This document shows, piece after piece, positions 30,367 to 57,063 of a stretch of 64,000 nucleotides of DNA. Position numbers and translations under genes: made by a program. The notes beneath the pieces are model-generated. The model was not told where the DNA came from. It made no database searches and saw only the letters and a program-made list of their open reading frames with translations. Location: the IMG/VR virus record IMGVR_UViG_3300012953_000015, positions 79,013 through 143,012 of that record. One strand, 5' to 3'. This DNA comes from a virus. Positions within the stretch are counted from its first letter, which is position 1, and each line of letters begins with the position of its first letter.

Positions 30367-30843
30367 ATGTCTGACGATATCAAGAAAAAAGAGTATGAAA
30401 AAGCTATAAATCAAAAATTGTCTAAGTACGATATAAACCCGTTTATTTTAAACGACAAAAATCAAGTTTTACTTCAACAAAGGATATCCACTGTTATATT
30501 TGGCGGAAAATGGATAATGCCGGGTGGCAAAGTTTTTGATTTAGAGAGAATAGAATCAGCTTTAAAGAGAATGACAAAATTAAAAACTAATGCTGATATA
30601 ATTTTTTACAACAAAGAATTAAACAGTTCTTTGATCGGGGTTTACGACGATCCATATAGAGACCCTAGAGAACATGTTGTTGGAATTACTTTTGCATGTA
30701 AATATGTTGGGGGTGATTTAATCCCAGGCGGAAATAGTTCAAAAGTTCAATTTTTTGATATGGAAGATGCTTTAAAACTAGATTTAGGTTTTGGTCATGA
30801 TTACATGATTAAGCACGCATATGAAAAGCTAGGAATCTCATGA
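30367..30843 (+). CDS. Nudix-fold protein with degenerate Nudix box
   Basis: WIMPGGKVFDLERIESALKRMTKLKT; RDPREHVV. Confidence 0.75.
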   Translation: MSDDIKKKEYEKAINQKLSKYDINPFILNDKNQVLLQQRISTVIFGGKWIMPGGKVFDLERIESALKRMTKLKTNADIIFYNKELNSSLIGVYDDPYRDPREHVVGITFACKYVGGDLIPGGNSSKVQFFDMEDALKLDLGFGHDYMIKHAYEKLGIS

Positions 30844-32024
30844 TATCTGAATTTTTTAAAAATGTTATTGCTAGGACAATTGACAAATTTTGGCTAAATT
30901 CATATAAGCATTACGATTTTTTTGAAAAGTCTCAATGGTGGTCTGAAGAAGAATTTAGAAAATTTCAGCTAGATTCATTAAAAAAACTAGGAAGCAAAAT
31001 AGATCTTCAAATTGAATCTTGGGATGATTTTGAAAGACTTCCGTTTATGTCAAAAACAGAATTAAGAAATTTCGAAAAGCCTACTGATAAACCTTACCAC
31101 GTTCATAATACTTCTGGCTCGACCGGTTATCCACTTTCTATTTATCTTACTCATGAAAATTGGGGAATGAAGGAGGGAATGTTTCTTCGTCATTGGGAAT
31201 GGATGGGAAGAAAGAAAGAAGATCTAGTTTTAAGATTAATTTCAGGAGAACCAAAATTTTCTAAATTTGATCGGTTAAGGAATGTAAAACCGATGAATTT
31301 TAGAGACTTAAATGATGATAAGATAGACTGGATAATTGATAATCAACCGAAGTTTATACATTGTACTGTATTTACCGCTAGGCAAGTTGTTCAATTACTA
31401 AAAAACAGAGATAGATTAGAAGTTCTAAAAGATATTACTCTTTGGTGGACAAACGAAAACACAGGACCACATTATGAAGAGATGTCTAAATATTTTAAGG
31501 ATATCTATCATGGATATGGTTTAGCTGAATTGACTCCAGTCGCAACTCAATGCGAATTTGGTGAACTTCATATTATTGAAGAGATGGCTATTGTAGAAGA
31601 AATTGATGGCAAAATAGTCGTCACTAACCCATTCAACGAAGCAATGCCAATTATCAGGTATCAAACAGGCGATACTGGTAAAATTGTTAGTTCATCTTGC
31701 CGTTGCGGTAGAAAATCAAGAATCATAAAAGATCTCAAGGGTAAAGGCGTAGATTTTTATGCTGGTCCTGAATTTAAAATTCCGATCGATTGGTTAGTTG
31801 TAAGTCCGATTTCTAAAAAATATATAGATTTTATCGACACCTGGAGAGCAGAAGTAAAAGTTAGCAAAAAGATCTTAGAGCTTTCTGTAAAATGGAAATC
31901 TAAAGAAGTTTCCAAAATGGAGTGGTATGCTGATTGGCTAAAAGAAGAATACGATCTCAATCTTATAATTAAAGATTATACCGGCGATTTTCCGGATAAA
32001 CAATTATTAAGGGTTTTAGATTGA
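30840..32024 (+). CDS. CapK / phenylacetate-CoA ligase family adenylating enzyme
   Basis: TSGSTG, YGLAE, IRYQTGD, CRCGR. Confidence 0.85.
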   Translation: MISEFFKNVIARTIDKFWLNSYKHYDFFEKSQWWSEEEFRKFQLDSLKKLGSKIDLQIESWDDFERLPFMSKTELRNFEKPTDKPYHVHNTSGSTGYPLSIYLTHENWGMKEGMFLRHWEWMGRKKEDLVLRLISGEPKFSKFDRLRNVKPMNFRDLNDDKIDWIIDNQPKFIHCTVFTARQVVQLLKNRDRLEVLKDITLWWTNENTGPHYEEMSKYFKDIYHGYGLAELTPVATQCEFGELHIIEEMAIVEEIDGKIVVTNPFNEAMPIIRYQTGDTGKIVSSSCRCGRKSRIIKDLKGKGVDFYAGPEFKIPIDWLVVSPISKKYIDFIDTWRAEVKVSKKILELSVKWKSKEVSKMEWYADWLKEEYDLNLIIKDYTGDFPDKQLLRVLD

Positions 32025-32656
32025 AAAAAGAAGACTGCTTGTTTGAGATAACTTATTTAAGACATGAAGAGGAAATAGTTAAAAGTCGAGCAAAATCAAT
32101 TGCTCAAACCCGGATTGATATCGGGAAGAGACTAGGGAAAAAATTTCCAATCGACGCTGATTATGTTATCCCAATGCCCGAAACAGCAGTCTTCAATGCA
32201 ATCGGATATCATCTAGAAACAGGAATACCTTATTGTTTGGGAGTGTATAAAACTCGACCAAAGATAAAAACTCTCTTTATCGATGATAGAGAAGTTACTT
32301 TAAAAGAGACTATGATAACAGTACCTCAAATCATAGAGGGAAAAAGAATTGTTATAGTAGATGAAACAGTTATCAGCGGTCTTACTTTAAAAGTTAATAT
32401 TGAAAAAATAAGAAAGCACAACCCAAAAGAAATTCACTTAAGGCTAGTGATAGCTCCAATGACTAGGACATGTCCATCTTCAGATTTTGGCGAAGATTGG
32501 GTTTTTGCTATAAATGAAAACAATAATTTAGCCGAATTTTTTGGAGTTGACTCTATAGAGTGGCTGTCTCCTGAAGATTACGAAGATTTTGTAAATTGCT
32601 CTTATTGCTTTGGGGGAAAGTGTGACAACAGTAAAATGGTTAAAACTAAATTTTGA
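32021..32656 (+). CDS. PurF-like phosphoribosyltransferase domain lacking the glutaminase domain
   Basis: CLFEITY, VIPMPETA, IVIVDETVISGLT, EIHLR, CSYCFGG. Confidence 0.8.
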   Translation: MKKEDCLFEITYLRHEEEIVKSRAKSIAQTRIDIGKRLGKKFPIDADYVIPMPETAVFNAIGYHLETGIPYCLGVYKTRPKIKTLFIDDREVTLKETMITVPQIIEGKRIVIVDETVISGLTLKVNIEKIRKHNPKEIHLRLVIAPMTRTCPSSDFGEDWVFAINENNNLAEFFGVDSIEWLSPEDYEDFVNCSYCFGGKCDNSKMVKTKF

Positions 32657-33710
32657 TGAAGAGGATGTCTCTTCTGTTACTGATTTATTAAATTCTCAAT
32701 CTACGATTTGTGGATTTTCCGAAGTAGTAGATCAATTCGAAGAAGCATGCAGCGCTTATTTCGGTGTTAAACATGCGCTAGCTTGTGCTAATGGCACTGT
32801 AGCTATATTCATAGCATGCGAAGCTTTACAACGATTTTATGATAAAAAGTTCAATTACGGAGTTCCAACTTGGAGTTATATAGCTCCAGCTAATGTCGCT
32901 GACTACGTTGGGGAGTTAACGTTAATAGATTCTGAAATAAACTCTCACAATGTAGAAGTTAACAACGTAGATCTCGGTGTTGTAGATGCTTTAATTCCTG
33001 TTGACATGGCAGGCATTCCTGTTGATTATGATTCTATAAAAAAATTAAACATTCCCGTAGTAGCTGATTGCGCTGAGTCACTTGGATCTAAGTACAAAGG
33101 GGAACATTCATGTTCGTTAAGTTTAGTGTCGACAACAAGCTTTCAGGATGCTAAGATAATAACAACTGGCGAAGGTGGGATGGTTTTCACAAATAACGAT
33201 GAAATTGCTAAAATTTGTAAACTTTTAATCAACCAAGGATATGGACCAAGCGGTTACGATATGCATGATCATATTGCTAAAGGTTTTAACTTCAGGATGT
33301 CAGCGCTACAAGCTGCTTTAGGAATATCACAACTGAAAAAGATAGAAAAGTTTTTATCACTTAGAGAAAATACTGCTTCTATCTATAGGGAAAAACTCAA
33401 CAAGTTAGTTGAGTTTCCAATCATTAGTGAAGATGTTATTTCAAACAATTACTCTTTCTTAATAATGTTGGACAGTAAGACAGAACGAGATAAGTTAAAA
33501 AACTTTCTTGCAAGCAAAAACATTCAAAGCAAATTATGGAAGCCAATCCATCTGTATGGTCTTTTCAAAGATCAGGGGAGTTTCACAAATGCAGAGTATA
33601 TTTTCGACCACCATTTGAGATTACCAATTCATAACAATATGAGAGATGAAGAAACTGAGTTAGTTTGTAGAGAGATAAAAAAATGTTTGGAGGTAATTAG
33701 AAATGATTGA
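32610..33710 (+). CDS. DegT/DnrJ/EryC1/StrS PLP-dependent sugar aminotransferase
   Basis: NGTVA, DCAESLG, SFQDAKIITTGEGG, GFNFRMS; start may be GTG 32622. Confidence 0.92.
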   Translation: MGESVTTVKWLKLNFDEEDVSSVTDLLNSQSTICGFSEVVDQFEEACSAYFGVKHALACANGTVAIFIACEALQRFYDKKFNYGVPTWSYIAPANVADYVGELTLIDSEINSHNVEVNNVDLGVVDALIPVDMAGIPVDYDSIKKLNIPVVADCAESLGSKYKGEHSCSLSLVSTTSFQDAKIITTGEGGMVFTNNDEIAKICKLLINQGYGPSGYDMHDHIAKGFNFRMSALQAALGISQLKKIEKFLSLRENTASIYREKLNKLVEFPIISEDVISNNYSFLIMLDSKTERDKLKNFLASKNIQSKLWKPIHLYGLFKDQGSFTNAEYIFDHHLRLPIHNNMRDEETELVCREIKKCLEVIRND

Positions 33711-34080
33711 TCGAGATAATGATATCGAAGTTGTCTGTGATTTAGATCACACCCTATATCGCCACCCATTGATAACTAGAACACTTTTTAAGATTTCTTC
33801 TTTTTTTCATAAATTAGCTTTAAAATTTGTTGTTATAGACGAATCTGTTCTAGAACAAATAAGAGGTAAGAAAATAGTGATCATGACCGGGCGAGACGCT
33901 GTTCATGATAAAAAAACTATAACTAAAAACTTAGAAAGAGATGGTATACACTACGAGCAGTTACGTATGTGCCCTCGTTTTGACTTAGTTTTAGATTGGA
34001 AAATAGATTATATTAAAAAAATGAAAGAAAAAAATCAAGACCTTGTTTGGTTAGATGATGATAAACCTGCAAGCTTTTAG
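33703..34080 (+). CDS. HAD-like phosphatase
   Basis: CDLDHTL, MTGR, K...LDDD. Confidence 0.7.
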   Translation: MIDRDNDIEVVCDLDHTLYRHPLITRTLFKISSFFHKLALKFVVIDESVLEQIRGKKIVIMTGRDAVHDKKTITKNLERDGIHYEQLRMCPRFDLVLDWKIDYIKKMKEKNQDLVWLDDDKPASF

Positions 34081-34090
34081 TGGAGAAAAA

Positions 34091-35320
34091 ATGAAAATAT
34101 CATTTATTGGTTTAGGAAAATTAGGATTACCTTTAGCATGCTGTTTAGCTGCATCTGGTAGAAAGATCCTCTGTGTTGATAAGAATGAGCACGTTTTAGA
34201 TACTTTAAAAAGGGGACAGCTCCCATTTTTTGAACCAGGTTTAGAAGACTTATTAAAGAAAGCTGATAAAAATTTAATAGGATTTACAGATTCTTACTCT
34301 AAAGCTATCGAAGAGACAGATGTTAGTTTAATACTGGTAAATACTCAGCTAGGCGATGATGGATATGCTTCAGATTTTGTAGAAGCAGCATTATCAGATA
34401 TTGCAATTAATCTTAGAGATAGTGATAAGCCTTACCATACAATTGTTTTATCTTCCACTGTTTTACCAGGAACTATAAAAGATAAACTTATCCCTTTGGT
34501 AGAAAATATATCTAACCGAAAGTATAAAGAAGGTTTTGGTTTTTCTTACGTTCCAGATTTTGTCAGATTAGGGATGGTTATAGAAGATTTTAAAAATCCG
34601 GAGTTTTTTTTGATAGGTTCTAATTGCAAAAAAGATTATAAGATTACTAAGAAAATTTTTAAAGATCTTCACGAAAACAAGCCTCCACATTACAGTCTAA
34701 CTTTAGAAGAAGTAGAAGTTGCAAAGGTAGCTTTAAACGCTTTCATAGTTAATAAAATTACTTTTGCAAATTTCTTAGGCCAACTTTGCGATGAGCTTGA
34801 AAATGTAAATGTTCATAATATAACAGAAACTATAGGTAATGACAAAAGGATATCTCCTTTCTTTTTTAGCTCTGGAGCTCCTTATGGAGGTACTTGCTTT
34901 CCTCGGGACACTTGGGCGTTTATACGCTTCGCAAAAGATAGAGGTAAAGAAGCGAAAAACTTAATCTTCGCAGAAGAAGTTAATGAAATGGTTTATCAAG
35001 ATATCTTTAAAAAAGTTTCAAAGTATAAAAAAGTTGGCATTTTAGGAGTATCTTTTAAACCAAATTCTCCAGTAACAATTGGATCTCCATCTGCTAGACT
35101 AATCAAAGAGCTTAAGAGGGATGGAAAAGAGGTTTATACGTATGATCCAATCCCGGAAGTTTACAGCAATCTTCGATTAGACGTCAATGAATGTTCTTCA
35201 ATCGAAGATTGTTTAGAGAAATCTGAAGTAGTTGCCATAATGCATTATGACGAAAGGTATAAAAAAGTATCAGATTCGAGTTCGAAAATTATTGATGTTT
35301 GGGGAAATGGAAGAAAGTAG
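34091..35320 (+). CDS. UDP-glucose/GDP-mannose 6-dehydrogenase family
   Basis: GLGKLG, STVLPGT, GGTCFPRD, GVSFKP; GGAG SD before ATG 34091. Confidence 0.92.
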   Translation: MKISFIGLGKLGLPLACCLAASGRKILCVDKNEHVLDTLKRGQLPFFEPGLEDLLKKADKNLIGFTDSYSKAIEETDVSLILVNTQLGDDGYASDFVEAALSDIAINLRDSDKPYHTIVLSSTVLPGTIKDKLIPLVENISNRKYKEGFGFSYVPDFVRLGMVIEDFKNPEFFLIGSNCKKDYKITKKIFKDLHENKPPHYSLTLEEVEVAKVALNAFIVNKITFANFLGQLCDELENVNVHNITETIGNDKRISPFFFSSGAPYGGTCFPRDTWAFIRFAKDRGKEAKNLIFAEEVNEMVYQDIFKKVSKYKKVGILGVSFKPNSPVTIGSPSARLIKELKRDGKEVYTYDPIPEVYSNLRLDVNECSSIEDCLEKSEVVAIMHYDERYKKVSDSSSKIIDVWGNGRK

Positions 35321-35326
35321 GAGAGT

Positions 35327-36172
35327 ATGCACAGTATTATTTTAACTATTCACAATGGAGAAAGATGCCCGTTTGGAGGAAAATTTCTGTTAGAAAGAGT
35401 TTTAGAAGGAATCATAGAAAATACAGTTGGTGATTACGAGCTATTATGTATGCTAGACGGCTGTACAGATAATTCGAAAAAAATTGTTGAAAGATATATT
35501 CAGGATTTCAATCATCTAAAAATTCGTCCAATTGTAACTCCTGATATATTTGAACTGCGGACTAATAACGTGGGTTTTAAAGCGTCTAAAGGAAAATATG
35601 TAATTGTCGTTCAGGATGACCAGATCGTTACTGAGAAGGGATGGAACGCTAGAATGCAAGAACCATTTGATTTCTTTGATGACGTATTTGCAGTGACTGC
35701 TAGGACTGCTCATAATTGGATAATTAATCCAAGTAGCATAGATTTGGGAAATGATAACGTAGACGAGACAAGGTTTTGTGATATTTTCGAATCTGCGGAT
35801 GTTACTAGCGGATATCCAGCAAGCAATATCAACATCGATAGGAATACATTTGCAGTAAGGGGAACTGTTAACCGTGGACCTCTGATGATGGATTTAGAAG
35901 ACTTAAAGGCTGTAAATTATTTAGATGATAAATTTGCTCCTTGCGATATGGATGATCATGATCTAATGTTTAGAGTTCATAAGCAGCTTGGAAAAGTTTG
36001 TGGCTTATATCGCGTTGGAGTTGAGTCTGATCATAGATGGAGTGGTTCAATGCAAAAAGGTCCACCGACCTGGGGATATCGTTCTCATTTTAAAAATTGC
36101 CGAATATTTTACGATAGAAATAAAGATATTCTTTTACAAAGAAGAATAGTAGAAAACAGGAGATTAAAATGA
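35327..36172 (+). CDS. Glycosyltransferase family 2
   Basis: LDGCTDNS, QDD, DDHDL. Confidence 0.85.
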   Translation: MHSIILTIHNGERCPFGGKFLLERVLEGIIENTVGDYELLCMLDGCTDNSKKIVERYIQDFNHLKIRPIVTPDIFELRTNNVGFKASKGKYVIVVQDDQIVTEKGWNARMQEPFDFFDDVFAVTARTAHNWIINPSSIDLGNDNVDETRFCDIFESADVTSGYPASNINIDRNTFAVRGTVNRGPLMMDLEDLKAVNYLDDKFAPCDMDDHDLMFRVHKQLGKVCGLYRVGVESDHRWSGSMQKGPPTWGYRSHFKNCRIFYDRNKDILLQRRIVENRRLK

Positions 36173-36864
36173 TTGATTTAGAACGTAAGTTTTTATTCAT
36201 TCACATAGGAAATTCTGCCGGCACTAGCATAGAGAAATCTTTATCTAATGAAACCACTTACTTTACCCCTTTTGGCAAACGACCTGGCGGAGCTCATTGG
36301 ACTTATTGGAAGAAAAAAGAGTGGTTTAAAGAATCCGAAAATACCTACACCAAGAATTTGGATTTTACTTTTGAAGATTTATATAAATTTGTAATTGTTA
36401 GAAACCCTTGGGATAGGATGGTTTCTAAATACATGCATGAATCGCAAAACGTTGAAGTTTTCACCCAACATGTTTCTGATGGTTTGAAAGGTGGTCCGGA
36501 TTTTATTAGTTTCTTAATGCATATTAAGGAAAATAACGTGCAAGATCAAGATCTTCATCTTTCGCCAAGTTTAGATTGGTTTCCACCAGAAGAAATGGAT
36601 AAAATAATTATTTTTGACAATCTTCAAAAAGGTTTTCAAGAAGCAACGAAAGAGATTGGTTTAGAAAAAGCGTTAGAAGATATTCACCCAGGACTTACTA
36701 ATGGCTCTTGGAAAAAACCTGATAGAAATCTTGATAGTTTTGGAAACCCAAGAAAACATTACAGTCTTTATTATAACGATGAATGTATAGAGTACGTCAG
36801 GGAACGTTTTAAGAAAGACATTGATTATTTCAACTTTGAATTTGATGATAAGAGGCAGAGATGA
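36169..36864 (+). CDS. Sulfotransferase family 2-like protein
   Basis: FIHIGNSAGTSI, VRNPWDRMVS, KDIDYFNF. Confidence 0.8.
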   Translation: MIDLERKFLFIHIGNSAGTSIEKSLSNETTYFTPFGKRPGGAHWTYWKKKEWFKESENTYTKNLDFTFEDLYKFVIVRNPWDRMVSKYMHESQNVEVFTQHVSDGLKGGPDFISFLMHIKENNVQDQDLHLSPSLDWFPPEEMDKIIIFDNLQKGFQEATKEIGLEKALEDIHPGLTNGSWKKPDRNLDSFGNPRKHYSLYYNDECIEYVRERFKKDIDYFNFEFDDKRQR

Positions 36865-37226
36865 AAAATACTACAGAAATACCCATAAAATTTGTTCCTA
36901 AAGGGTGGGGCTTTGAAAAGTGGATAGTAAACTGCGAAGAATACTGCGGTAAACTGTTATATTTTGCTAAAGGTAAAATGTGTTCTTGGCATTATCATGA
37001 ATTAAAAGATGAAGTTTTCTACATCCAGAGTGGAAAAATTCTAGTAAAGTATTCTGATGAAGACGACATTACGAAAGCAAAAGAGAAAATACTCGGTCCA
37101 GGAGATAACTTTCACGTGTATAGGGGGTTGAGGCATAGAATGATAGCATTGCAAGATACAGAGCTTTTTGAGTTTTCTACTCAGCACTTCGATTCAGATA
37201 GCTATAGAATCGAGAAAGGAGATTAA
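36861..37226 (+). CDS. Cupin-domain sugar isomerase-like protein
   Basis: VPKGWG, SWHYHELKDEVF, HRMIA, EFST. Confidence 0.85.
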   Translation: MKNTTEIPIKFVPKGWGFEKWIVNCEEYCGKLLYFAKGKMCSWHYHELKDEVFYIQSGKILVKYSDEDDITKAKEKILGPGDNFHVYRGLRHRMIALQDTELFEFSTQHFDSDSYRIEKGD

Positions 37227-37227
37227 T

Positions 37228-37980
37228 TTGAGTCACATATGTATATCTTCGTATTTTGGAGGATTAGGAGATTCCTTACAGTTTTCAACTTTACCTGAAC
37301 TTTTTACAGAAGCTGGAAGAGACGTTTTCGTCTGGGATAAAGCGTACTTTAGAAATCCCGAAGTAAAAGAGTTAGTCTGGGATTGTAACCCTTTTATAAA
37401 AGGAACTGCTCCAGGGGTTTGGAATGCTGGCGATCTTCCCGGATTACACAAGCCTGTACATGAAAATTGTATATCTAATTGGGAAATTCTTCATGGTTTT
37501 GAACCCACAAATATCTATCCTAAAATATACTATGATATAGAATATCAAAGTGGTTACGAAGATGTTGTGTTAGTAGATTTCTCAAGTATAACTCACAAAT
37601 ATGATAAAGAAAAAATAGAAAATGCTTTCAAAAAAATAAGAGAAAGTGAATTTTCTGGTAAAAAAGTTGTACAAGTTGCTTTTAAGAAAGATTTAAATAA
37701 AAAAGGAGCTCCCCCGGGAAGATCTAACGATGGAAATTTTCATTTCTACGATATTTGCAAAGATAAAATAGAGATCAACTCTCTTTTCGAGTACTGCAAC
37801 TTAATTGGTTCTTGTCACGGGATGATAACTACTTATAGCGGCGCTAGCCCTTTAAGCTCTGCTTTAAAGAGGCAAAATAAAAATTTAAGAAGTATTTGTA
37901 TAATACCAGAAGAGCAATATGAAAATGATAAGAAAAGATCTATTTTCATATTTGATAATATTGAATACAATTTAATTTAA
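37228..37980 (+). CDS. Putative GT-B (GT9/GT11-like) glycosyltransferase
   Basis: N-terminal GGLGDSL; C-terminal MITTYSGA; AAGGAG SD before TTG 37228. Confidence 0.5.
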   Translation: MSHICISSYFGGLGDSLQFSTLPELFTEAGRDVFVWDKAYFRNPEVKELVWDCNPFIKGTAPGVWNAGDLPGLHKPVHENCISNWEILHGFEPTNIYPKIYYDIEYQSGYEDVVLVDFSSITHKYDKEKIENAFKKIRESEFSGKKVVQVAFKKDLNKKGAPPGRSNDGNFHFYDICKDKIEINSLFEYCNLIGSCHGMITTYSGASPLSSALKRQNKNLRSICIIPEEQYENDKKRSIFIFDNIEYNLI

Positions 37981-37991
37981 AAGGGAGTTAA

Positions 37992-38966
37992 ATGAAATAT
38001 CTAATAACTGGAATAACTGGTTTTGCTGGGCCTCATCTTGCTAACCTTCTTCATTCTCATGGCCATGAGGTGTATGGTTTAGTTAGGTGTAGCAACGGAA
38101 CAGAAAACGATATAAGAGATGTAGTACCAGATGAAGTTTTTAACGAAATTGGTTTCTTATACGCTGATCTTCAAAACTTTAGAGCAATCAGCAACGTAAT
38201 GAGGAATAATCGTTTTGATGGTGTTTTTCATTTAGCTGCGCAATCTCACCCACCGACAAGCTTTCTAGACCCGGTAGGTACCTTTGAGTGTAACGTTATG
38301 GGAAGTATAAACCTTATACAAGCTATAGAAGATAATCAACCAGATTGTCGATTAATGTTTTGTTCTACTTCTGAAGTTTATGGTAACGTTGGAGCTGATG
38401 GAAGAAAGATAGTTGAAGATGACGTTATTTTTCCAGCTAACCCTTATGGAGCTTCTAAAGCAGCGATAGACCTTTATATGCAGGAAAGAATGCACAATGG
38501 AAAAATCAAAGGTTTTGTAACAAGAGCTTTCTCTCACACGGGAACCCGAAGGGGAAAAAACTTTTCTATATCTTCAGATGCATATCAAGTAGCTAGAATG
38601 ATCAAAGGATATCAAGATAAAGTTTTGTTAGTTGGAAACTTGGATTCTGTAAGAGTCGTAATTGATGTTAAAGATACAGTTAATTCTTATTATCTTGCTA
38701 TGATAAATGAAGACTGCATGGGTAAAGTTTTTAACGTTTGTGGCGACGATCCAAAAAGAATGCAGTTTTTTAGTGATAAACTGATTGAACTTTCCGGGTT
38801 AAAAGGGGTGACCAAGAAAGTTCATCCTCCTTTTTATCGACCAATTGATATACATTATCAACACGGAGATTCTAGTAAGATCTCAAATTTAACTGGTTGG
38901 AAAGTCAAAAGAGATATTGAAGACACTCTATCAGACTTGATAAAGTATTGGGTAGACAAAATCTAA
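37992..38966 (+). CDS. GDP-mannose 4,6-dehydratase / Rmd-like SDR
   Basis: ITGITGFAG, HLAAQS, STSEVYG, PYGASK, GNLDS, RPIDI. Confidence 0.9.
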   Translation: MKYLITGITGFAGPHLANLLHSHGHEVYGLVRCSNGTENDIRDVVPDEVFNEIGFLYADLQNFRAISNVMRNNRFDGVFHLAAQSHPPTSFLDPVGTFECNVMGSINLIQAIEDNQPDCRLMFCSTSEVYGNVGADGRKIVEDDVIFPANPYGASKAAIDLYMQERMHNGKIKGFVTRAFSHTGTRRGKNFSISSDAYQVARMIKGYQDKVLLVGNLDSVRVVIDVKDTVNSYYLAMINEDCMGKVFNVCGDDPKRMQFFSDKLIELSGLKGVTKKVHPPFYRPIDIHYQHGDSSKISNLTGWKVKRDIEDTLSDLIKYWVDKI

Positions 38967-39358
38967 TGATCACGGTTTTTACTCCTGGTTGTTTTGATAT
39001 ACTTCACCATGGTCATATAGAACTTTTTAAATATTGTCGTTCGATTGGTGATGAAGTTATAGTTGGTTTAAATAGTGATGATAGCATAAGAAAGATTAAA
39101 GGTTCTAACAGGCCCATTAACAACTTAAAAAGCAGAATTTCTGTTTTAAACTCTATAAAATATATTGACAAAGTGATTGTTTTTGAAGAAGAAGATCCAT
39201 ATAATTTGATAAAAAATATCAACCCAGATATTATGGTTAAAGGTGGAGACTACAAAGCAGAAGACGTCATTGGAAAAGATTTATGCGAAGTTAGGATATT
39301 TAGTTACATCGATGGCTACTCAACAACAAAATCAATACAACGTTTTAATTCTAGGTGA
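38966..39358 (+). CDS. D-glycero-manno-heptose 1-phosphate adenylyltransferase-like (HldE/RfaE domain II)
   Basis: GCFDILHHGH, VGLNSDDS, KGSNRPIN, VKGGDY, YSTT. Confidence 0.9.
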   Translation: MITVFTPGCFDILHHGHIELFKYCRSIGDEVIVGLNSDDSIRKIKGSNRPINNLKSRISVLNSIKYIDKVIVFEEEDPYNLIKNINPDIMVKGGDYKAEDVIGKDLCEVRIFSYIDGYSTTKSIQRFNSR

Positions 39359-40082
39359 TGTTTGTAAAGACATATACATTTTCGGAGAATGTTTAAGACT
39401 AAGTCCGGAAGCTCCAGTTCCCGTCTTAGATCAGAAGTTAGTAGAAGAACGTTTCGGTATGGTTGCTAATGTAAGAAGCAACTTTGAAAATATGTCTCCA
39501 AATTCAGAAATATCTTATTTAACTCACGATTCGAACTTATCCGTGAAAACAAGATTTGTAGATTCGAGATCGGGTCAACAAATTATGCGTCACGACGTTT
39601 CTCAAAAGATACCAGAATTAGGTTTAGAAAAGATTAAAAATAAAAAGTATGACGCTATCATTATATCAGACTACAATAAAGGTTTTATAAGTAATAAAAC
39701 TGTTGAATTTTTAAAAGATCTTAAGTCTCCAATATTCGTAGATACGAAGAAAAGAAATTTAAGTAGCTACTCAGGTTGCTATGTTAAAGTCAACGAATTT
39801 GAAGATAAAAAAGCTTACAATAAAAAAGGGTGTGAATTAATTGTGACCCTAGGATCAAAAGGCGCTCTATACAATGGGGTTAAGTACCCAACCGATATAG
39901 TTGAGGTTCACGATGCATGTGGAGCTGGTGATGTTTTTTTAGCTAGCTTAGTATCTCGTTGGTTAGAAACTAGAGATTTAGACGTTTCTATAAAAACTGC
40001 GAATAAATGTGCTAGTTATAGCGTTACCAAAGTTGGTTCTTACTCTTTGACTTTAGAAGAATATGAAAAACTAAAAGTTTAA
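39312..40082 (+). CDS. Heptose-7-phosphate kinase-like PfkB kinase (HldE/RfaE domain I)
   Basis: RLSPEAPVPV, KTRF, SDYNKG, VHDACGAGDVF. Confidence 0.88.
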   Translation: MATQQQNQYNVLILGDVCKDIYIFGECLRLSPEAPVPVLDQKLVEERFGMVANVRSNFENMSPNSEISYLTHDSNLSVKTRFVDSRSGQQIMRHDVSQKIPELGLEKIKNKKYDAIIISDYNKGFISNKTVEFLKDLKSPIFVDTKKRNLSSYSGCYVKVNEFEDKKAYNKKGCELIVTLGSKGALYNGVKYPTDIVEVHDACGAGDVFLASLVSRWLETRDLDVSIKTANKCASYSVTKVGSYSLTLEEYEKLKV

Positions 40083-46400: not shown

Positions 46401-47222
46401 ATGAAAAAATTTAACTCTATGAACGAACTTTTAGTTCACTACTGCGAAACGCTTCTTTCTGCAAAAGAAGTTTCTGCAAGAAATTCTAAACAGAAAGAAA
46501 TTATTTTTGAAAATTTTGAACTAACTAACCCTGCTAACATTGAAATAAGCTTAACGGGAAGAAAATTTAATAAAAACTACGCAATAGCGGAATGGCTATG
46601 GTACATTTCTGCTAACCCATCTTCTAGAAATATTGGAAAATTAGCTAAGATTTGGAATATCATTTCAGACAACAATCAAGAAGTTGAATCTAACTACGGC
46701 GTTTATTTAAAACCGCAGTGGAATTGGGTTAAGAATGAAATTATCAAAGATTTAGACACCCGACGTGCTACTTTCGTAATCAATCAACCACATCATAAGT
46801 ACAAAAACTCAAGTGATTATCCGTGCACTCAGTATATACAATTTTTTGTTAGAGAAAACAAGCTTCATATTGGCATAAACATGAGATCTAATGATTTAAT
46901 CTATGGATTGTGTAATGATGTTTTTACTTTTTCTTTATTCCAACAAATGATGTTGAACGAATTAAATCAATCTGGGTTGAATTTAGAGCTTGGTAGCTAC
47001 TTTCATTTTGCCGGAAGTTTACACATTTATGAGCATCACTACGAAATGGCAAAAAATATCTGTAATTCTATTGACAAACCAATAAATTCTTGTAGATTAA
47101 ATCAGGCAATAAATTGGTGTTTTATTGATGAAAATTTTCCATTCCCTGTTGCAGATATTGAAAAAAACGAAATATACGAATATGTTGAAAGACATTCAGG
47201 AGAAATTTTTAATAATGGATGA
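46401..47222 (+). CDS. Thymidylate-synthase-fold enzyme of dCMP hydroxymethylase type (T4 gp42-like)
   Basis: AEWLWY, SNYG, catalytic PCT, MRSNDLIYGLCND (Asp at the dUMP/dCMP specificity position, Asn in ThyA), GSLHIY. Confidence 0.8.
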   Translation: MKKFNSMNELLVHYCETLLSAKEVSARNSKQKEIIFENFELTNPANIEISLTGRKFNKNYAIAEWLWYISANPSSRNIGKLAKIWNIISDNNQEVESNYGVYLKPQWNWVKNEIIKDLDTRRATFVINQPHHKYKNSSDYPCTQYIQFFVRENKLHIGINMRSNDLIYGLCNDVFTFSLFQQMMLNELNQSGLNLELGSYFHFAGSLHIYEHHYEMAKNICNSIDKPINSCRLNQAINWCFIDENFPFPVADIEKNEIYEYVERHSGEIFNNG

Positions 47223-47493
47223 AAGAAGTATACTCGAGCGCGCTAATGAAATTGTGAATCAACGCTCAGAAGAGAAAGAAAGAGAATATGGCCCTTTTAG
47301 CGAAGGTATGAAAAGGGCTGCTAGCATAGCGTCTGGAATGACTGGTAAAGACTTTACTGCTCACGATATGTACGTTGCTTTAGTATCCTTGAAGCTCAGT
47401 CGCCAAAGTTATCATTTTAAGGATGATAATTTGTTAGATGCAGTCGCTTATTTGGGAGCTTGGCATAACTACATTAAGGAAGGTGGGCAATGA
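47215..47493 (+). CDS. DUF6378-like all-alpha protein (putative dNTP pyrophosphohydrolase)
   Basis: ILERANEIV...R...EYG, LKLSR, DNLLDAVAY. Confidence 0.7.
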   Translation: MDERSILERANEIVNQRSEEKEREYGPFSEGMKRAASIASGMTGKDFTAHDMYVALVSLKLSRQSYHFKDDNLLDAVAYLGAWHNYIKEGGQ

Positions 47494-47927
47494 AAATTTC
47501 TAAAGTTAGAGACGTGAAAACCCCCACACGTGGAACTGATAAGTCTGCCGGTATAGATTTTTTTGTTCCTGATGATTTTGAGGAAACTCCTCTTTCTCCT
47601 GGTCAAAGCGCCTGTATACCTAGCGGTATCAAAGCTAACGTACCTGAAGGATATGCTCTAGTTGTTTTCAATAAGAGTGGAGTTGCTTTAAAAAGAAATC
47701 TTTCTGTTGGTGCTTGCGTAATAGATGAAGATTATCAAGGCGAAATACATCTCCATGTTTATAATTTTGGTAATAAGGTAGAAACAGTTTCTAGCGGAGA
47801 AAAACTAGTTCAAATGATTCTTTTGCCAGTGTTTTACGACGTATTAGATGTGGTAGATGTTCAAGATTTGTTTTCTGAAGAAACTTCTAGAGGAGAAGGT
47901 GGTTTTGGAAGTACGGGAGTTTCGTAA
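47490..47927 (+). CDS. dut: Trimeric dUTPase
   Basis: SAGIDF, NKSG, VIDEDYQGEI, LVQ, RGEGGFGSTG. Confidence 0.92.
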   Translation: MKISKVRDVKTPTRGTDKSAGIDFFVPDDFEETPLSPGQSACIPSGIKANVPEGYALVVFNKSGVALKRNLSVGACVIDEDYQGEIHLHVYNFGNKVETVSSGEKLVQMILLPVFYDVLDVVDVQDLFSEETSRGEGGFGSTGVS

Positions 47928-49015
47928 TGGTAGAGACTAGAACTTTAGTTGTAGATGTCGACGACACTATTTCTACCCATGTTAATCGTGATTACGAAAA
48001 CGCAATCCCGCACACGAAAATTATAAATAAGATAAACAAAATGTACGATTCAGGTTGGAAGATTGTATATTTTACAGCGCGCGGACAAGTTTCTTGTAAC
48101 GGGGATTTAGAACTAATTAATCAGCTTAGAAGGCCGGTTCTTGAATCTTGGATGGAGAAGCATGGAGTGAAGTATCACGAGCTAATGTTTGGAAAACCTA
48201 TAGGTGTCTATTACATCGATGATAAAGCGATGCGTCCTGAAGAATTTATGGACTTGGAATATGAAGTTTTGAAAGGCGGCTCCGGAGGATCTATAGAGAA
48301 AGTTGGCGATCGGATTATTAAAAAAGCTAATAACGCTAAAGACCAATTTCGGTGGTATAAGTCGGCCGCTAGTTTATGCCACGTTCCTAAAATTAACACC
48401 TATTACGGTGATACTTTAGATATGGAATACCTTGAAGGATCTAATTTAAACGACGTTTGTGCTAAGGAACACATAGATTATTTAGTCGATTTGTTGACGA
48501 GGTTTAGTGATATAAAAGTTTCTAATAATAGCTGGCAAACCATGATAGATAGAGTTAAAGATCACATCTCTTTAAACGCTGTAAGAAATGAAAGAGAAAT
48601 TATAAAACTTTTAGAAAGTCAGCAAGTTAGAGATTTTATGGATAGTCAAGCTAGTTTTTCACACGGCGATCTTACATTAGAAAACTGCATCCTTATGGAT
48701 GATAAGGTCTATCTTATAGATCCTAATTGCCCCGACAACATTTACAGTTCTTGGGTAATGGATATCGGAAAACTGTATCAATCTTTGCATTATTCTTATG
48801 AAGAGAATTTCTCTGGATTCAAAACAAACGTTGATAAAGAAGAGCTTTTCGGTCATTTATATAGAAAATTTAACGAGAATTTTTCTAGATATTTTTTACT
48901 TTGTGAAATGATTCACTACATTCGAATGATTAAATACAAGCCAGATGATCAAAAAAGTCTTGTAAGGAAAAGAATTCAAGACATTTTTAAGGAAGTGAAA
49001 ATTGTTTTTAGATAA
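47927..49015 (+). CDS. Fusion of BcbF-like HAD phosphatase and APH/choline-kinase-like phosphotransferase
   Basis: N-terminal VDVDDTI, FTARG, GKP, YIDDK; C-terminal GGSGG, HGDLTLEN, LIDP. Confidence 0.8.
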   Translation: MVETRTLVVDVDDTISTHVNRDYENAIPHTKIINKINKMYDSGWKIVYFTARGQVSCNGDLELINQLRRPVLESWMEKHGVKYHELMFGKPIGVYYIDDKAMRPEEFMDLEYEVLKGGSGGSIEKVGDRIIKKANNAKDQFRWYKSAASLCHVPKINTYYGDTLDMEYLEGSNLNDVCAKEHIDYLVDLLTRFSDIKVSNNSWQTMIDRVKDHISLNAVRNEREIIKLLESQQVRDFMDSQASFSHGDLTLENCILMDDKVYLIDPNCPDNIYSSWVMDIGKLYQSLHYSYEENFSGFKTNVDKEELFGHLYRKFNENFSRYFLLCEMIHYIRMIKYKPDDQKSLVRKRIQDIFKEVKIVFR

Positions 49016-49457
49016 GAAAGAATTAGCTGAAAAATTGGGGAGAGATCCAACTGTTGGGTTTACTTGTTCTACTTTCGATCTTTTCCATTCTGGTCACGTC
49101 GTAATGTTGCAAGAGGGTAAATCACTTTGTGATTATCTCGTAGTGGGATTGCTAACCGACCCTACTATTGATCGCCCAGAAACTAAAAACAAACCGGTCC
49201 AAAGCGTGATGGAGAGGTACTTGCAACTAGCTGCGTGTAAATACGTTGACGAAATTATACCTTTTGAATCTGAGCAAGATTTAGTTGACTTGATCTTAAC
49301 GATTAATCCCGACATAAGAATAGTCGGGGAAGAGTATAAGGGATCTGATCACACCGGCGTCGGTTTGTGTCCTATTCATTATAATAAGAGAAGGCATTCT
49401 TTCTCTACCACGCAACTAAGAGAGAGAGTTTTAAAATCAAGGGAGAAAAGCGAATGA
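49002..49457 (+). CDS. TagD-like cytidylyl/nucleotidyltransferase (HxGH family)
   Basis: STFDLFHSGH, KYVDEIIP, FSTTQLR. Confidence 0.9.
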   Translation: MFLDKKELAEKLGRDPTVGFTCSTFDLFHSGHVVMLQEGKSLCDYLVVGLLTDPTIDRPETKNKPVQSVMERYLQLAACKYVDEIIPFESEQDLVDLILTINPDIRIVGEEYKGSDHTGVGLCPIHYNKRRHSFSTTQLRERVLKSREKSE

Positions 49458-50851
49458 AGATTGCAATGATTTTCGGCAAAGGCCTAGACGGGTGTGGGGT
49501 CCAGAGAGGGGCTGTAGAGATTGCTACTTGGGCTCAAAGAAACGATGTTAAATTTGACATATATTATATGAAGGGTAGAAGCTTCGCACGTGCTAAAGGC
49601 CACTCGATGCCAACTGAACCGATAGAGTTTAAGCATTCAGAGATACCTTCACTAGTAGAAAGATTAAATTCAGATTACGATATTGTAATTTTAAATTCAT
49701 ATCCGTCTTCTAAGCACGATCCGCAAGCTATAATGTCGTTTTATGAAAATTTAGTTAAGAAGATTGAAGAGCCAGTTTTAGTTGGGATGATGCATGAGAT
49801 AAAGAAAGCTAATATCGATGCTATTCCAATGATATTACCGATACTAAATTACTGCGATATCGTTTACAATTTTTCTGAAAAGACATTCTTTTCTAACGAA
49901 TTTTCTTCTTATTTTTCTTCCAAGATTCTAGGCGAGAGAACTAAAAGATTTAAGATGTGGATAGATCTTAATGAGATGAAGAAAAACTATAGAGATGTAT
50001 ATAGTTTAAAAGACAAAGACAAAAAGTTGATGTATGTCGGTCGTTGGACTTCTATGAAAGATCCGAGAAGGGTTCTCGATTTATACCCTACTATGAAAGA
50101 AAAAGACCCAAACTTTAGGCTGGCTTTACACGGGATAGAAAGATCAATTGGCGCTAAGTTTGATATTATAGATCATCCAAACTCAGTTTACGATTTAAAT
50201 TTCAATGGGTATGACTGGGACGTAGATGGTGTTCCAACATTCGGTCCATACGATTACGCTGATGGCATGGAGCTAATATCTAAATCTTTGTTTGCTTGCT
50301 CTTTTTACCGTTTACCTAAAGAACCTCACAATTACGGAGATAGGATGGAATATACTCAAATAGAGATCATTGGGTGTGGAACAATTCCTGTTTTTGACAA
50401 GCACTATGGAGAGCACAATATAGATTCTAACGGGAATAGGTATATTGACAATGATTACCTAGCTGTTTGGTCTTCTCGTGATGATTTAGGGGAAACTGCT
50501 GATAAACTAATATCTATTGCTGATAGCCCCTCTGAACAAAAGAAATACAGGGATTCAAGTTTTGATTTTATCGATCGAGAATTCAACGCAGACAATGTTC
50601 TTCCCGAGATGTTTGACTACATTTTGAAGACAGGAAAAGATAACAATAAATTTTCTAATGACAGAGATTTGCTTACTCATCTCTTCCGTGACGACCGAGC
50701 TTTCAACGATTATCTCGAGATACTTGAACAAGGTAAAGTTCCAGCTGTCGGCATTAAACAAGTAACTAATCAATCATTATGTTTCTTTGAGAAGAAAGCT
50801 CGCAGAGAATTTGCTTGCTACAAACAAAAAAGGGTTAGGAGAAAGAAATGA
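49454..50851 (+). CDS. DNA alpha-glucosyltransferase homologue (T4 AGT-like, GT-B)
   Basis: GLDGCGV, ILNSYP, VGRWTSMK, GIERS, MEYTQIEIIGCGTIPVF are collinear with T4 AGT motifs as recalled (GLEGCGV, INSVP, IGRTTTWK, GLERS, LEYTHLELGACGTIPVF). Confidence 0.85.
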   Translation: MKIAMIFGKGLDGCGVQRGAVEIATWAQRNDVKFDIYYMKGRSFARAKGHSMPTEPIEFKHSEIPSLVERLNSDYDIVILNSYPSSKHDPQAIMSFYENLVKKIEEPVLVGMMHEIKKANIDAIPMILPILNYCDIVYNFSEKTFFSNEFSSYFSSKILGERTKRFKMWIDLNEMKKNYRDVYSLKDKDKKLMYVGRWTSMKDPRRVLDLYPTMKEKDPNFRLALHGIERSIGAKFDIIDHPNSVYDLNFNGYDWDVDGVPTFGPYDYADGMELISKSLFACSFYRLPKEPHNYGDRMEYTQIEIIGCGTIPVFDKHYGEHNIDSNGNRYIDNDYLAVWSSRDDLGETADKLISIADSPSEQKKYRDSSFDFIDREFNADNVLPEMFDYILKTGKDNNKFSNDRDLLTHLFRDDRAFNDYLEILEQGKVPAVGIKQVTNQSLCFFEKKARREFACYKQKRVRRKK

Positions 50852-52005
50852 GTGATATTTCTTGGGCAACTATGATTCCTCTTATTGGAGGATCTGCTAT
50901 AGGATGCAGCCAAGCTACTGAAAATTTGCCAAAGTTTCACTTAAGTTTTAAGGCTTTTGAGCAAAACGAAAACCACTTGACTAGCTATTGGCCAGATATT
51001 CAGAGAATCGATTTGGATGAAGTTGCTCTTCCGCAAGCCCGGCTTGATTTCGTCAATTCTGTCTGCCCGTGCGCAGGATTAAGCCAATTAAACACAAGCC
51101 AAGATCAGTCTACGAGAGATAGCAAGAATGCTTGGATGATGAAAACTTCTAGAATCGTTCTAGAACAAGTTCGGCCTAGAGTTTATTGGGGGGAAAACGC
51201 TCCCGCTCTCTATACTAAATCGGGAGAATCAGTCAGAGAACAGTTGAAGGAAATAGCAGCAGATACCGGCTATTCATTTTCAGTATATAGAACTTCTACC
51301 TTTAAACATGGCATACCACAAAAGCGTTTAAGAACTTTTTATTTTTTCTGGGATTCAAAGACTGCTCCAATCATGAATTGGTACGACAGGAAAAGAGACA
51401 ACCTAATAGAGTACCTGAAAAAGATACCCTCGGATTCTAAGCAGCAGGACGTTTATAATTTGAACGATATTTTTACTAAATTTCCATCTTACGCCTTTTT
51501 GCTTGAAAAGCACGAGTTAGACCACAAAGCTTTTATAGAAAAATTTGGTTCTGGACCAGCTCACTCAGTGCATCAGTTTATTGTAAGGAACGATCTTATT
51601 GATGAGTGTTTAGAGTGGTTAAATGACAAGAATCCAGAGCACAAAGAAGTTAGGAAATTTGAGCATATTAAGAATAAGCTTTCGATGGGAAAGAGTTTCT
51701 TAGATCATTCACCAGCTTTTTACAACGACTGTACTAACGCTATAGTCGGCAGAACCTTACAGATGATTATGCACCCGGAGCAACCTCGAGGCATGAGTCA
51801 TAGAGAAATTATGCACCTTATGGGACTCCCAAATGATTTCAATTTACAGACCAAAAGATTAAACGACGTTGCTCAAAATGTTCCAACTTGCACTGCAAGA
51901 GACATGACATACGAAGTTATGAAATATCTAAAAGGGCAGTTAGAAAATTCTGGTCACGTAAATTATAAACAAGATAACATTAAAAATGTTTCGGGTGAAT
52001 TATGA
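50848..52005 (+). CDS. C5-cytosine DNA methyltransferase-like protein with divergent SAM motif
   Basis: Motif IV CPCAGLS, VI GENAP, VIII GIPQKRLR, IX REIMHLMGLP, X AQNVP; motif I reads IPLIGG instead of FxGxGG. Confidence 0.8.
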   Translation: MSDISWATMIPLIGGSAIGCSQATENLPKFHLSFKAFEQNENHLTSYWPDIQRIDLDEVALPQARLDFVNSVCPCAGLSQLNTSQDQSTRDSKNAWMMKTSRIVLEQVRPRVYWGENAPALYTKSGESVREQLKEIAADTGYSFSVYRTSTFKHGIPQKRLRTFYFFWDSKTAPIMNWYDRKRDNLIEYLKKIPSDSKQQDVYNLNDIFTKFPSYAFLLEKHELDHKAFIEKFGSGPAHSVHQFIVRNDLIDECLEWLNDKNPEHKEVRKFEHIKNKLSMGKSFLDHSPAFYNDCTNAIVGRTLQMIMHPEQPRGMSHREIMHLMGLPNDFNLQTKRLNDVAQNVPTCTARDMTYEVMKYLKGQLENSGHVNYKQDNIKNVSGEL

Positions 52006-53012
52006 AAGTTTTAGTGACAGGTGGTTTAGGGTTCATTGGTTCTAACTTAGTTAGAAAATTACTTGAAAAAAATTATTCTGTAGATGTAATAGATGATATG
52101 TCTAACGGGAGTTTAGACTCTTTACATGGTTTAGATTTTAGAACTGTTCCTGTCAACTTTTTGCTAAAATACGAGCATGAGAAAGAGGAAGAAGATAACA
52201 AGAATTTGTTAGTTATAACAGGGGATTTTGCTCACAGGTATGTACTGGGAAGGATCGCTGATAAAAAATATGATTTTGTTTTTCATCTTGCTGCTCTTCC
52301 AAGAGTAGAGTACTCAGTTGAAAACCCTATAGAAACTTCTGATATCAATGTTATGCGTAGCATAAAGTTACTGACCGCGTGCGTAAAAAATATAAAAAGA
52401 TTTATTTTCAGTAGCTCTTCAGCAATATATGGAAACGTAGAAGATAATTTTCCGTCTCGTGAGAGTGGTTCTGTCAAACCTAGTTCTCCATACGGCTTAC
52501 AAAAGAAAGTTGTTGAAGATTACTGCAAACTTTTCTATTGTCTTTACGGGTTGGATTCTGTTAGTTTAAGGTACTTCAACGTTTATGGACCCGGCCAGTT
52601 AGGCGACAGCCCTTACTCTACTGCAGTTTCTGCTTGGATAAACAAATTAGTAGAGAAGAAACCGCTTCGAAGTGATGGAGATGGAACACAGTCTAGAGAT
52701 TTAATTTTCGTTGACGATATTTGCGCTGCAAATATCTTATGCGCAGAATTTAAAGGTAGCTTAGAGGGAGATGTTTACAACGTAGGTACCGGTAAAGCTT
52801 TATCTAACAACCAAATTTTAGAAATGTTAGAAAAACATTGCGGTAGATACCAAGTGATAAACGCGCCGGAGAGAAAGGGAGACGTGAAGCATACCCTTTC
52901 TGATGTTGCTAAAATAAAAGAAAAATTATTTTTTATCCCAGAAATAAATTTCGAAGAAGGTTTAATTAAAACGCTGGAATGGTGGGGGCTTAAAAATGAA
53001 GAGCAATCCTAG
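52002..53012 (+). CDS. NAD-dependent NDP-sugar epimerase/dehydratase
   Basis: TGGLGFIG, SSSAIYG, YGLQK, RYFNVYG, GDGTQSRD. Confidence 0.92.
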   Translation: MKVLVTGGLGFIGSNLVRKLLEKNYSVDVIDDMSNGSLDSLHGLDFRTVPVNFLLKYEHEKEEEDNKNLLVITGDFAHRYVLGRIADKKYDFVFHLAALPRVEYSVENPIETSDINVMRSIKLLTACVKNIKRFIFSSSSAIYGNVEDNFPSRESGSVKPSSPYGLQKKVVEDYCKLFYCLYGLDSVSLRYFNVYGPGQLGDSPYSTAVSAWINKLVEKKPLRSDGDGTQSRDLIFVDDICAANILCAEFKGSLEGDVYNVGTGKALSNNQILEMLEKHCGRYQVINAPERKGDVKHTLSDVAKIKEKLFFIPEINFEEGLIKTLEWWGLKNEEQS

Positions 53013-53586
53013 ATTTGAGATATTCACCGGCCCCATGTTCGGAGGAAAGACGACAAGGCTATTATCTTCTTTAGAGAGGTACACATATCAAAATAAGAAT
53101 GTGTTACTTTTTAAGCCTAGGATAGACACAAGGTATTCTGATTCATCTATAGTCACTCACTCTGGGATAAGTTGGAGTGGTAATAAAAATTCGTTTAGTA
53201 AAGTCATAAGGGTAGAAACGAGTGAAGAACTGTTTTCTCTTTTTGAAAACTACAATCAAAAGTTTGATGTAGATGTAGTTGCTTTAGACGAAGCTTTCAT
53301 GATTGAAAATGTTTCTGAGTCTTTAATAAAGATTTATAAAATGGGAAAAACAATCTTAGTTTCTAGTTTACAACTTTCTTCGGGAGGGACTCCCTATAAT
53401 GAAATGAGCAAGATCATGCCTTGGGCTACAAGCGTACAAATATGTCCAGCTGTTTGTTCTGTCTGCGGCGAAGACGCTTACTATACTAGCAAGAGCTCTG
53501 GTAAAGATCATGACTCTATAGAAGTAGGTGGCTCTGAAATGTATCAACCGCGGTGTTTTCAACATTTCATAAACGAGATATCCTGA
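52996..53586 (+). CDS. tdk: Thymidine kinase (TK1 type)
   Basis: GPMFGGKT, FKPRIDTRY, LDEA, CSVCG, YQPRC. Confidence 0.92.
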   Translation: MKSNPRFEIFTGPMFGGKTTRLLSSLERYTYQNKNVLLFKPRIDTRYSDSSIVTHSGISWSGNKNSFSKVIRVETSEELFSLFENYNQKFDVDVVALDEAFMIENVSESLIKIYKMGKTILVSSLQLSSGGTPYNEMSKIMPWATSVQICPAVCSVCGEDAYYTSKSSGKDHDSIEVGGSEMYQPRCFQHFINEIS

Positions 53587-56622: not shown

Positions 56623-57063
56623 ATGAAAGAAAACATTAGGCCATCTTGGGATAATGTGTGGGCAAATGTTGCTAGAGAAATTTCTAAAAGATCTTACGAT
56701 CCACGCTACCAAGTAGGAGCAATAGTTGTAACTCACGACAATACTCAGGTTTTATCAGTAGGTTATAATGGAAATTACGCTGGTGGACCTAATAAGGTAG
56801 AATCGGATATTCCTGGCCAATCTGGCTTTATTCACGCAGAGATAAACTGTTTGTTAAAAATGGATTATAATAATCCGAAAAGAAAAATAATGTACTTAAC
56901 CCTCAGTCCTTGCCGGCAGTGTGCAAAAGCTATTGTAAATGCAGGTATATCAGAGGTTGTATATTTAGAGAAGTACAGGGATGTTTCAAGTATAAAAATT
57001 TTAGAAGAAGCAGGTGTCACTTGTCGTGAATATTTAGACTTAGCGGAGGATTTAAATGAGTAA
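56623..57063 (+). CDS. dCMP deaminase
   Basis: VGA, GYNG, HAEIN, SPCRQC. Confidence 0.92.
   Translation: MKENIRPSWDNVWANVAREISKRSYDPRYQVGAIVVTHDNTQVLSVGYNGNYAGGPNKVESDIPGQSGFIHAEINCLLKMDYNNPKRKIMYLTLSPCRQCAKAIVNAGISEVVYLEKYRDVSSIKILEEAGVTCREYLDLAEDLNE

Follow-up and report, generated by a model that had tools for sequence, protein, structure and literature searches.

A phage C5-methyltransferase-fold family with an altered SAM pocket, linked to hydroxymethylcytosine genes and present in marine animals

Introduction

Canonical DNA cytosine C5-methyltransferases (C5-MTases; PF00145), among them M.HhaI, M.HaeIII and the catalytic domain of DNMT1, share one fold, motifs I to X in the same order, and a catalytic Cys, a Glu and two Arg. 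In work by Liutkeviciute et al. from 2009, such enzymes reportedly converted cytosine to hydroxymethylcytosine (hmC) and hmC to cytosine in vitro when SAM was left out. T-even phages make glucosyl-hmC by a pre-replicative pathway comprising gp42, gp1, gp56 and an alpha-glucosyltransferase. A post-replicative phage pathway to hmC combines a C5-MT with a TET dioxygenase and a glycosyltransferase (PMC8256090). CmoX of Synechococcus phage S-B43 (PDB 8YF3) is a C5-carboxymethyltransferase that acts in DNA hypermodification, and the position held by Asn304 in HhaI and Arg350 in CmoX governs which group is transferred (PMC12783734).

The present work concerns a C5-MTase-like ORF and its family, designated PLIGG, in a 64,000-nt stretch of viral DNA (the window, which is the whole stretch analysed). 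The ORF shares with the T-even pathway a cluster that holds both an hmdCMP-synthase signature and a DNA alpha-glucosyltransferase (AGT) homologue, and with the C5-MT/TET pathway the presence of a C5-MTase-fold gene among glycosyltransferases in a cytosine hypermodification cluster. In contrast to the C5-MT/TET pathway, the hmC of PLIGG phages comes from a pre-replicative synthase; in one animal member the PLIGG domain is joined to TET. T-even phages differ in lacking a PLIGG-family member (tblastn over 50,697 phage records), and the phage studied here has its own NDP-sugar supply genes.

Results

The ORF at 50848-52005 and its gene cluster

The viral record that contains the window is 143 kb long and 52% complete, and it carries DnaE and structural-type genes. 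The genes surrounding the ORF are arranged as follows.

46401-47222, plus strand: thymidylate-synthase (TS) homologue with the dCMP hydroxymethylase signature D143, D169, D177
47125-47493, plus strand: DUF6378 protein, candidate dNTP pyrophosphatase with a putative dCTPase role
47490-47927, plus strand: dUTPase
47927-49015, plus strand: HAD phosphatase fused to an APH-like kinase, candidate for sugar-phosphate supply
49002-49457, plus strand: nucleotidyltransferase (CTP_transf_like), candidate for NDP-sugar synthesis
49454-50851, plus strand: AGT homologue, translationally coupled (PF11440, E 3.9e-11; phrog_2888, E 1.5e-98)
50848-52005, plus strand: C5-MTase-fold enzyme of the PLIGG family, 385 aa (from the ORF, Pfam, AlphaFold model and structural alignment)
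52002-53012, plus strand: NAD-dependent NDP-sugar epimerase, coupled to the stop of the C5-MTase-like gene
52996-53586, plus strand: thymidine kinase
56623-57063, plus strand: dCMP deaminase, a recurrent partner of the cluster

The ATG of the C5-MTase-like ORF (50848-50850) overlaps the AGT stop (50849-50851), as the initial annotation had recorded, and at the 3' end its stop runs into the epimerase start (52002-52005); these 4-nt overlaps couple it to the genes on both sides. The gp42-type neighbour that had been proposed is borne out by the synthase, which has D143, D169 and D177, the signature of a hydroxymethylase rather than a hydroxylase or methylase (PMC13326640). The cluster thus holds two features of T-even-type pre-replicative hmC synthesis, this synthase and a DNA glycosyltransferase. 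DUF6378 and DUF1599 proteins are no more than candidate dCTPases. A dNMP kinase was found neither in the 52%-complete genome itself nor in its close relative G033; one is present in genome G013, and phage G and S-TIM5 have kinase-like ORFs. Elsewhere in the window, at 29293-40082, a second cluster resembles sugar-handling genes, with glycosyltransferase-, dehydrogenase-, dehydratase- and kinase-like N-termini. A promoter and terminator scan gave results at chance level.

The ORF is the sole PF00145 match in its viral record. Its Pfam DNA_methylase match (E 1.8e-18) is above the cut-off, and its score of 43 bits against TIGR00675 is below the cut-off of 100.65 bits. The AlphaFold model (pLDDT 91) aligned with DNMT1, CmoX, M.HaeIII and M.HhaI, all at Z 23-24.5, and its best viral fold match was gp301 of Bacillus phage G. 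A Rossmann-type catalytic domain and motifs I-X in order are present, and the model indicates that the protein is a member of the PF00145 superfamily with an intact C5-MTase fold, at 11-15% identity to the canonical enzymes in structural alignments.

An intact catalytic set beside an altered SAM pocket

Conservation was assessed in an alignment of 170 phage-type and 26 animal-type members, and the motifs were located as follows.

50875-50892, plus strand: rebuilt motif I, I10-G15, with Leu12 at the canonical first Gly (alignment)
50944-50949, plus strand: motif II, with Ser33 in place of the ribose-binding Glu and the aromatic residue 34 retained (register inferred from the strand end and alignment)
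51067-51075, plus strand: motif IV, Pro74-Cys75 (catalytic nucleophile), followed by Ala76 at the HhaI Gln82 position (alignment)
51193-51198, plus strand: motif VI, Glu116-Asn117 (alignment)
51319-51333, plus strand: motif VIII, Gln158-x-Arg160-x-Arg162 (alignment)
51871-51885, plus strand: motif X, A342-P346, with Gln343 at the HhaI Asn304 / CmoX Arg350 position (profile alignment)

The initial annotation described an altered SAM pocket beside intact catalytic PC, ENx and QxRxR motifs, and the alignment agrees: P74-C75, E116-N117 and Q158-x-R160-x-R162 are conserved at 97-100% among the 170 phage-type members, save P74 (81%). Motif I reads IPLIGG, not FxGxGG, as it had been given; since P11 and L12 are each at 94% in the same 170 members, the change is a family trait rather than drift or a sequencing error. 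The motif II change was absent from that annotation. Ser33, at the end of strand 2 and at the canonical acidic ribose-binding site, is conserved at 86% of phage-type members (register by alignment and secondary structure). For motif X, the loss of the canonical residue stands, but the reading of GN changed to QN was one residue off. Anchored on Val-Pro, G-N-A-V-P of HaeIII and G-R-M-V-P of CmoX correspond to A342-Q343-N344-V345-P346, so that the canonical Asn is replaced by Gln343, the Gly by a small residue (here Ala342) and the following Ser/Ala by Asn344. Profile alignments to HaeIII and CmoX, together with a canonical enzyme of Nostoc phage N1, place Gln343, not Asn344, at the HhaI Asn304 site; this corrected register is new here, and Gln343 is conserved at 98% of phage-type members. 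The motif I Gly, the motif II Glu and the motif X Asn, three SAM contacts of the canonical enzymes, are swapped alike in most of the 170 phage-type and 26 animal-type members.

The SAM side nevertheless retains both motif I glycines, the aromatic residue at 34 and an Asp near motif III (registers of motifs II and III by alignment and secondary structure). Given these and the Rossmann core, an altered mode of SAM binding may persist. The protein shares its fold, and probably its first step, with C5-MTases, yet it fails the three sequence tests for a canonical SAM site.

The cofactor-side half also has further invariant residues, P11, N40 (91% of phage-type members), N94 and N344. These residues are among the points in favour of a group transferase with another donor or acceptor, which would take some group other than methyl from a SAM analogue or small sulfonium compound and attach it to C5, or would substitute or reduce the hmC hydroxyl via an exocyclic methylene intermediate. 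Ala76 replaces HhaI Gln82, and change at that position has been used to enlarge engineered MTase pockets. The fixed Gln of the PLIGG family also recalls CmoX, a phage C5-MTase fold that uses carboxy-SAM through a donor change at the Asn304 position (PMC12783734). CmoX, however, keeps the SAM-site Phe, Glu and Asp as well as Arg350, whereas the window protein has Gln343, lacks the Glu and is 14% identical; Gln343 rather than Arg at this position ruled out membership of the CmoX group. CmoA and CmoY are absent from the annotated recurrent neighbours of PLIGG-family loci, which hold no conserved donor-making gene, and the near-identical phage and animal pockets would require a donor common to both cell types. 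We consider a group transferase unlikely.

Phage members accompany hmC genes

The protein had 903 homologues (436 clusters at E < 1e-30), and the PLIGG family has hundreds of phage members; this number and the fixed motif changes ruled out a sequencing error or decayed pseudogene. In 8 of 8 genomes or records tested, the sole PF00145 gene was the PLIGG-family member. The family occurs on only 16 contigs of GTDB genomes, environmental or MAG assemblies that mostly have phage-type hmC neighbours, and family-level tblastn matches among the 50,697 phage records were confined to XG4, four TIM5-like cyanophage records and phage G.

A neighbourhood survey covered 101 loci, many of them close relatives, and its counts are of non-independent events. 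Recurrent neighbours were a TS homologue (54 loci), an epimerase (46) and a dCMP deaminase (42), and the transferases comprised AGT (28), a second GT-B-like family (30), HMUDK_hel (16) and three smaller families. A synthase or DNA transferase was nearby in 56 of the 60 loci of at least 15 kb. The signature D143/D169/D177 was present in all 53 readable neighbouring TS homologues, and where the synthase was not adjacent it often lay elsewhere on long contigs, again with the hmdCMP signature. Coupling to the hmC pathway, which the initial annotation had suggested, is thus upheld in general, but not its AGT-specific form: AGT as an obligate partner was ruled out by its presence in only 28 loci, other glycosyltransferases or an amino-acid:DNA-transferase-like gene standing in its place. 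As to a constant co-occurrence of IPLIGG homologues with AGT and gp42, which that annotation had proposed as a check, AGT is variable and the animal copies described below have neither gene nearby. Phage homologues without gp42-like or transferase genes were not common. A TET/JBP dioxygenase was matched in none of 5 genomes, a weak test in which the control was also silent in all.

The PLIGG-family gene often lies directly downstream of an hmC-decorating transferase, whatever its type, and one phage protein of 889 aa (P0314) has HMUDK_hel fused to a PLIGG-family MTase domain. Such coupling, with this one fusion, would fit a subunit without catalysis of its own, a base-flipper or scaffold by which hmC is offered to the neighbouring transferase. 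The 97-100% conservation of Cys75, Glu116, Arg160 and Arg162, the variation of the partner among unrelated folds, and animal copies that keep all of these residues without such a partner make this reading very improbable.

Other arrangements were also observed. In close relatives (L007-L010; L112:7136-10011), AGT is replaced by HMUDK_hel (amino-acid:DNA-transferase-like), a myo-inositol-1-phosphate synthase and a small HAD-like gene; beside an hmdCMP-type synthase, this set suggests a possible inositol-linked modification of hmC. Two loci hold divergent PLIGG-family paralogues in tandem (L032:9968-12400; L034:9977-12400). T4-like clusters (L061:6340-6726; L061:8697-9695) have a small UDG-superfamily protein, and sometimes a UDP-galactopyranose mutase, beside the synthase and PLIGG gene.

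Cultured members and a possible 5mC writer

S-TIM5 gp080 (29% identity) and phage G gp301 (24% identity), both annotated as DNA methylases, belong to the PLIGG family, and gp301 appears to retain the motif II Glu. The literature searched contained no biochemical characterisation of either. Phage G has two AGTs beside the PLIGG gene, and its hmdCMP-type synthase lies at a distance of some 13 kb. The S-TIM5 gene is solitary locally and is not clustered with the AGT of that phage (L090:6754-8034), whose genome also encodes a dCMP-type ThyA homologue (L001:6781-7617), a separate ThyX, a dCMP deaminase and a dNMP-kinase-like ORF (record 104638-105201). This genome-level completion of the gene set is new here, and the AGT and dCMP-type synthase ruled out S-TIM5 as a homologue without hmC partners. 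The ThyA homologue has Asp177, but Cys rather than Asp at position 143.

The PLIGG gene is the only C5-MTase-fold gene of S-TIM5. Sabehi et al. are said to have found, in 2012, that S-TIM5 cytosines after purines are all methylated (purine-C protected). A context-specific pattern implies a DNA-level enzyme, for which the PLIGG gene is the obvious candidate, and this argues that the family is active on DNA. The pattern leaves the chemistry unfixed, because 5mC at purine-C, hmC at purine-C followed by AGT, and removal at pyrimidine-C look alike by bisulfite. In view of the dCMP-type TS homologue, the AGT and the dNMP-kinase-like ORF of S-TIM5, the reported methylation may be hmC or glucosyl-hmC.

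The S-TIM5 pattern is among the evidence for a close rival to the explanation favoured below, in which the enzyme would be a SAM-dependent 5mC writer of low specificity (e.g. for purine-C) with a remodelled working pocket. In phages it would act on cytosines that escape hmC substitution; substitution may be partial, given that the close relative G033 yielded no recognisable dNMP kinase. GpC is the preferred site of phage C5-MTs that are paired with TET (PMC8256090). Against such a writer, all three pocket changes are near invariant (Leu12 at the motif I Gly, no Glu to bind ribose, and Gln343 at the Asn304 site), and bisulfite-type evidence cannot separate 5mC from hmC or glucosyl-hmC. It also leaves unexplained the hmdCMP-synthase link and the coupling or fusion to hydroxyl-dependent transferases; 5mC offers hmC-decorating transferases no hydroxyl. 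The further hmC genes of S-TIM5 speak against it as well. We regard a 5mC writer as a real possibility.

Composition tests do not separate the candidate chemistries. No purine-C or pyrimidine-C dinucleotide signature was found in the phage's own genome or in S-TIM5, and avoidance of 6-mer palindromes by C context was inconsistent (p = 0.49 own genome, 0.20 S-TIM5, 0.05 G033, 0.76 G013, 0.52 phage G). As separate observations, CCGG is over-represented in the whole genome G000 (ratio 1.52, z 13.6), in which GGATCC (0.31), GAATTC (0.58) and GATC are depleted, and GGCGCC, ACCGGT and GACGTC are strongly avoided in phage G 1-200000 (L171-L180) despite its hmC gene set.

Animal copies with zinc-finger, CXXC and TET fusions

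Several of the best profile matches were proteins of 600-1460 aa. Their PLIGG domains share 41-48% identity with the window protein, and Cys/His zinc fingers or a CXXC finger (Pfam E 6.6e-7) are attached to them. An 18-kb contig carries one copy together with fragmented PDI, HYOU1, endonuclease and C1q genes, and the linkage of this copy to the endonuclease gene is kept in a second, synonymously saturated copy. Other copies are on single-gene contigs, whose source samples are presumably marine metatranscriptomes. Synonymous sites are near or at saturation with dN of 0.06-0.42, and CpG is depleted (o/e 0.2-0.75). The animal clade is expressed and under purifying selection, and occurs in intron-containing marine animal contigs. 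By gene content the host is an animal. It may be a copepod, judging from the plankton source, the best named HYOU1 match (arthropod, 45%) and the style of the zinc fingers, which we take to be copepod-like. Two types of gene were located.

L114:574-3270 (also L116, L117, L144): spliced animal-type TET-fusion gene with a compact TET domain and an intron at about 3034-3090
L118:8566-10893, L119:8610-10490, L125:2889-5465: intron-free PLIGG domains with zinc-finger tails, in several divergent groups, on marine animal genomic contigs

The TET fusion, P0269 (cluster of 47), is a more distant member at 34%, in which a C2H2 finger and a PLIGG domain, its catalytic motifs all present, are combined with a TET-like domain (E 1.5e-12 to human TET2). 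A 57-nt GT-AG intron, at the same position in four contigs, precedes the last exon, which supplies the third iron ligand and the 2-oxoglutarate Arg (E 3.4e-9); with this exon the TET domain has all catalytic residues (HxD, His, Arg). No spliced transcript was present among the proteins retrieved. This member branches apart and may represent a second acquisition.

Ten animal sequences formed one clade (98/97) inside phage sequences (99/98 with L012, 100/98 with P0069), and the same nesting was obtained with FastTree on 179 rows and IQ-TREE on 37 chosen rows. This nesting points to phage-to-animal transfer, which is very probable and far better supported than the chemistry. The animal copies retain all catalytic residues, with no gp42, AGT or coupled transferase nearby, and the enzyme is therefore independent of these partners. 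A family confined to viruses was ruled out by these copies. The animal clade with its CXXC and TET fusions is new here, and the literature searched contained no description of a phage-derived DNA methyltransferase family in marine animals.

The possibility of a 5mC writer extends to these copies, which would be acquired de novo methyltransferases, the TET fusion forming hmC in two steps, like the phage pairs of C5-MT and TET. The CXXC and zinc-finger fusions suit a writer, and the C5-MTases that eukaryotes are known to have acquired write methyl marks. DNMT3 is lacking in the copepods that have been sampled (PMC8821070).

Discussion

We tentatively favour, as the best explanation of these sequences, an active enzyme that flips cytosine out and changes its C5 state as a finishing step of the hmC pathway, by SAM-independent interconversion of C and hmC. 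It is placed first because the fixed loss of three SAM contacts, the hmdCMP-synthase link, the transferase coupling and the TET fusion all share hmC. From known C5-MTase chemistry, the cytosine would be flipped out and held by Glu116 and Arg160/Arg162, and Cys75 would add to C6 and activate C5; the conserved residues suggest such a covalent C6 adduct. As a writer, the enzyme would draw on free formaldehyde or methylene-THF to place a one-carbon unit of formaldehyde oxidation level onto cytosines missed pre-replicatively, and the neighbouring transferase could then decorate the new hmC. As an eraser, it would strip the hydroxymethyl group from hmC left undecorated. Animal copies would direct the same chemistry by zinc fingers or CXXC, coupled to TET in one gene.

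Against C/hmC interconversion stand the retained Rossmann core, motif I GG, aromatic residue after motif II and Asp near motif III, the Cys143 of the S-TIM5 synthase and the purine-C methylation attributed to that phage. The methyl-writing role of C5-MTases transferred to eukaryotes also counts against it, as does the literature searched, in which there was no natural SAM-independent C5-MTase-fold enzyme. A search for papers on dehydroxymethylating phage MTases likewise found none.

It is possible, and we advance it with reserve, that a SAM-independent C5-MTase-fold enzyme writes or erases hydroxymethyl groups on DNA cytosine in hundreds of hmC phages and was domesticated by marine animals, in which the TET fusion could provide a direct demethylation route without excision, or a new mark. 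S-TIM5 is a cultured phage with the full gene set, and the question would be cheap to settle. If the enzyme is SAM-dependent, three 'universal' SAM contacts are dispensable and marine animals gain a phage-derived DNA methyltransferase family. If it is SAM-independent, it would be a natural enzyme whose job is a known in vitro side reaction of C5-MTases. It would then also serve to map or edit hmC, and would allow a test of direct hmC-to-C conversion, which has long been debated as a route of active demethylation. The PLIGG-family enzyme may thus be a way of writing or erasing a cytosine mark.
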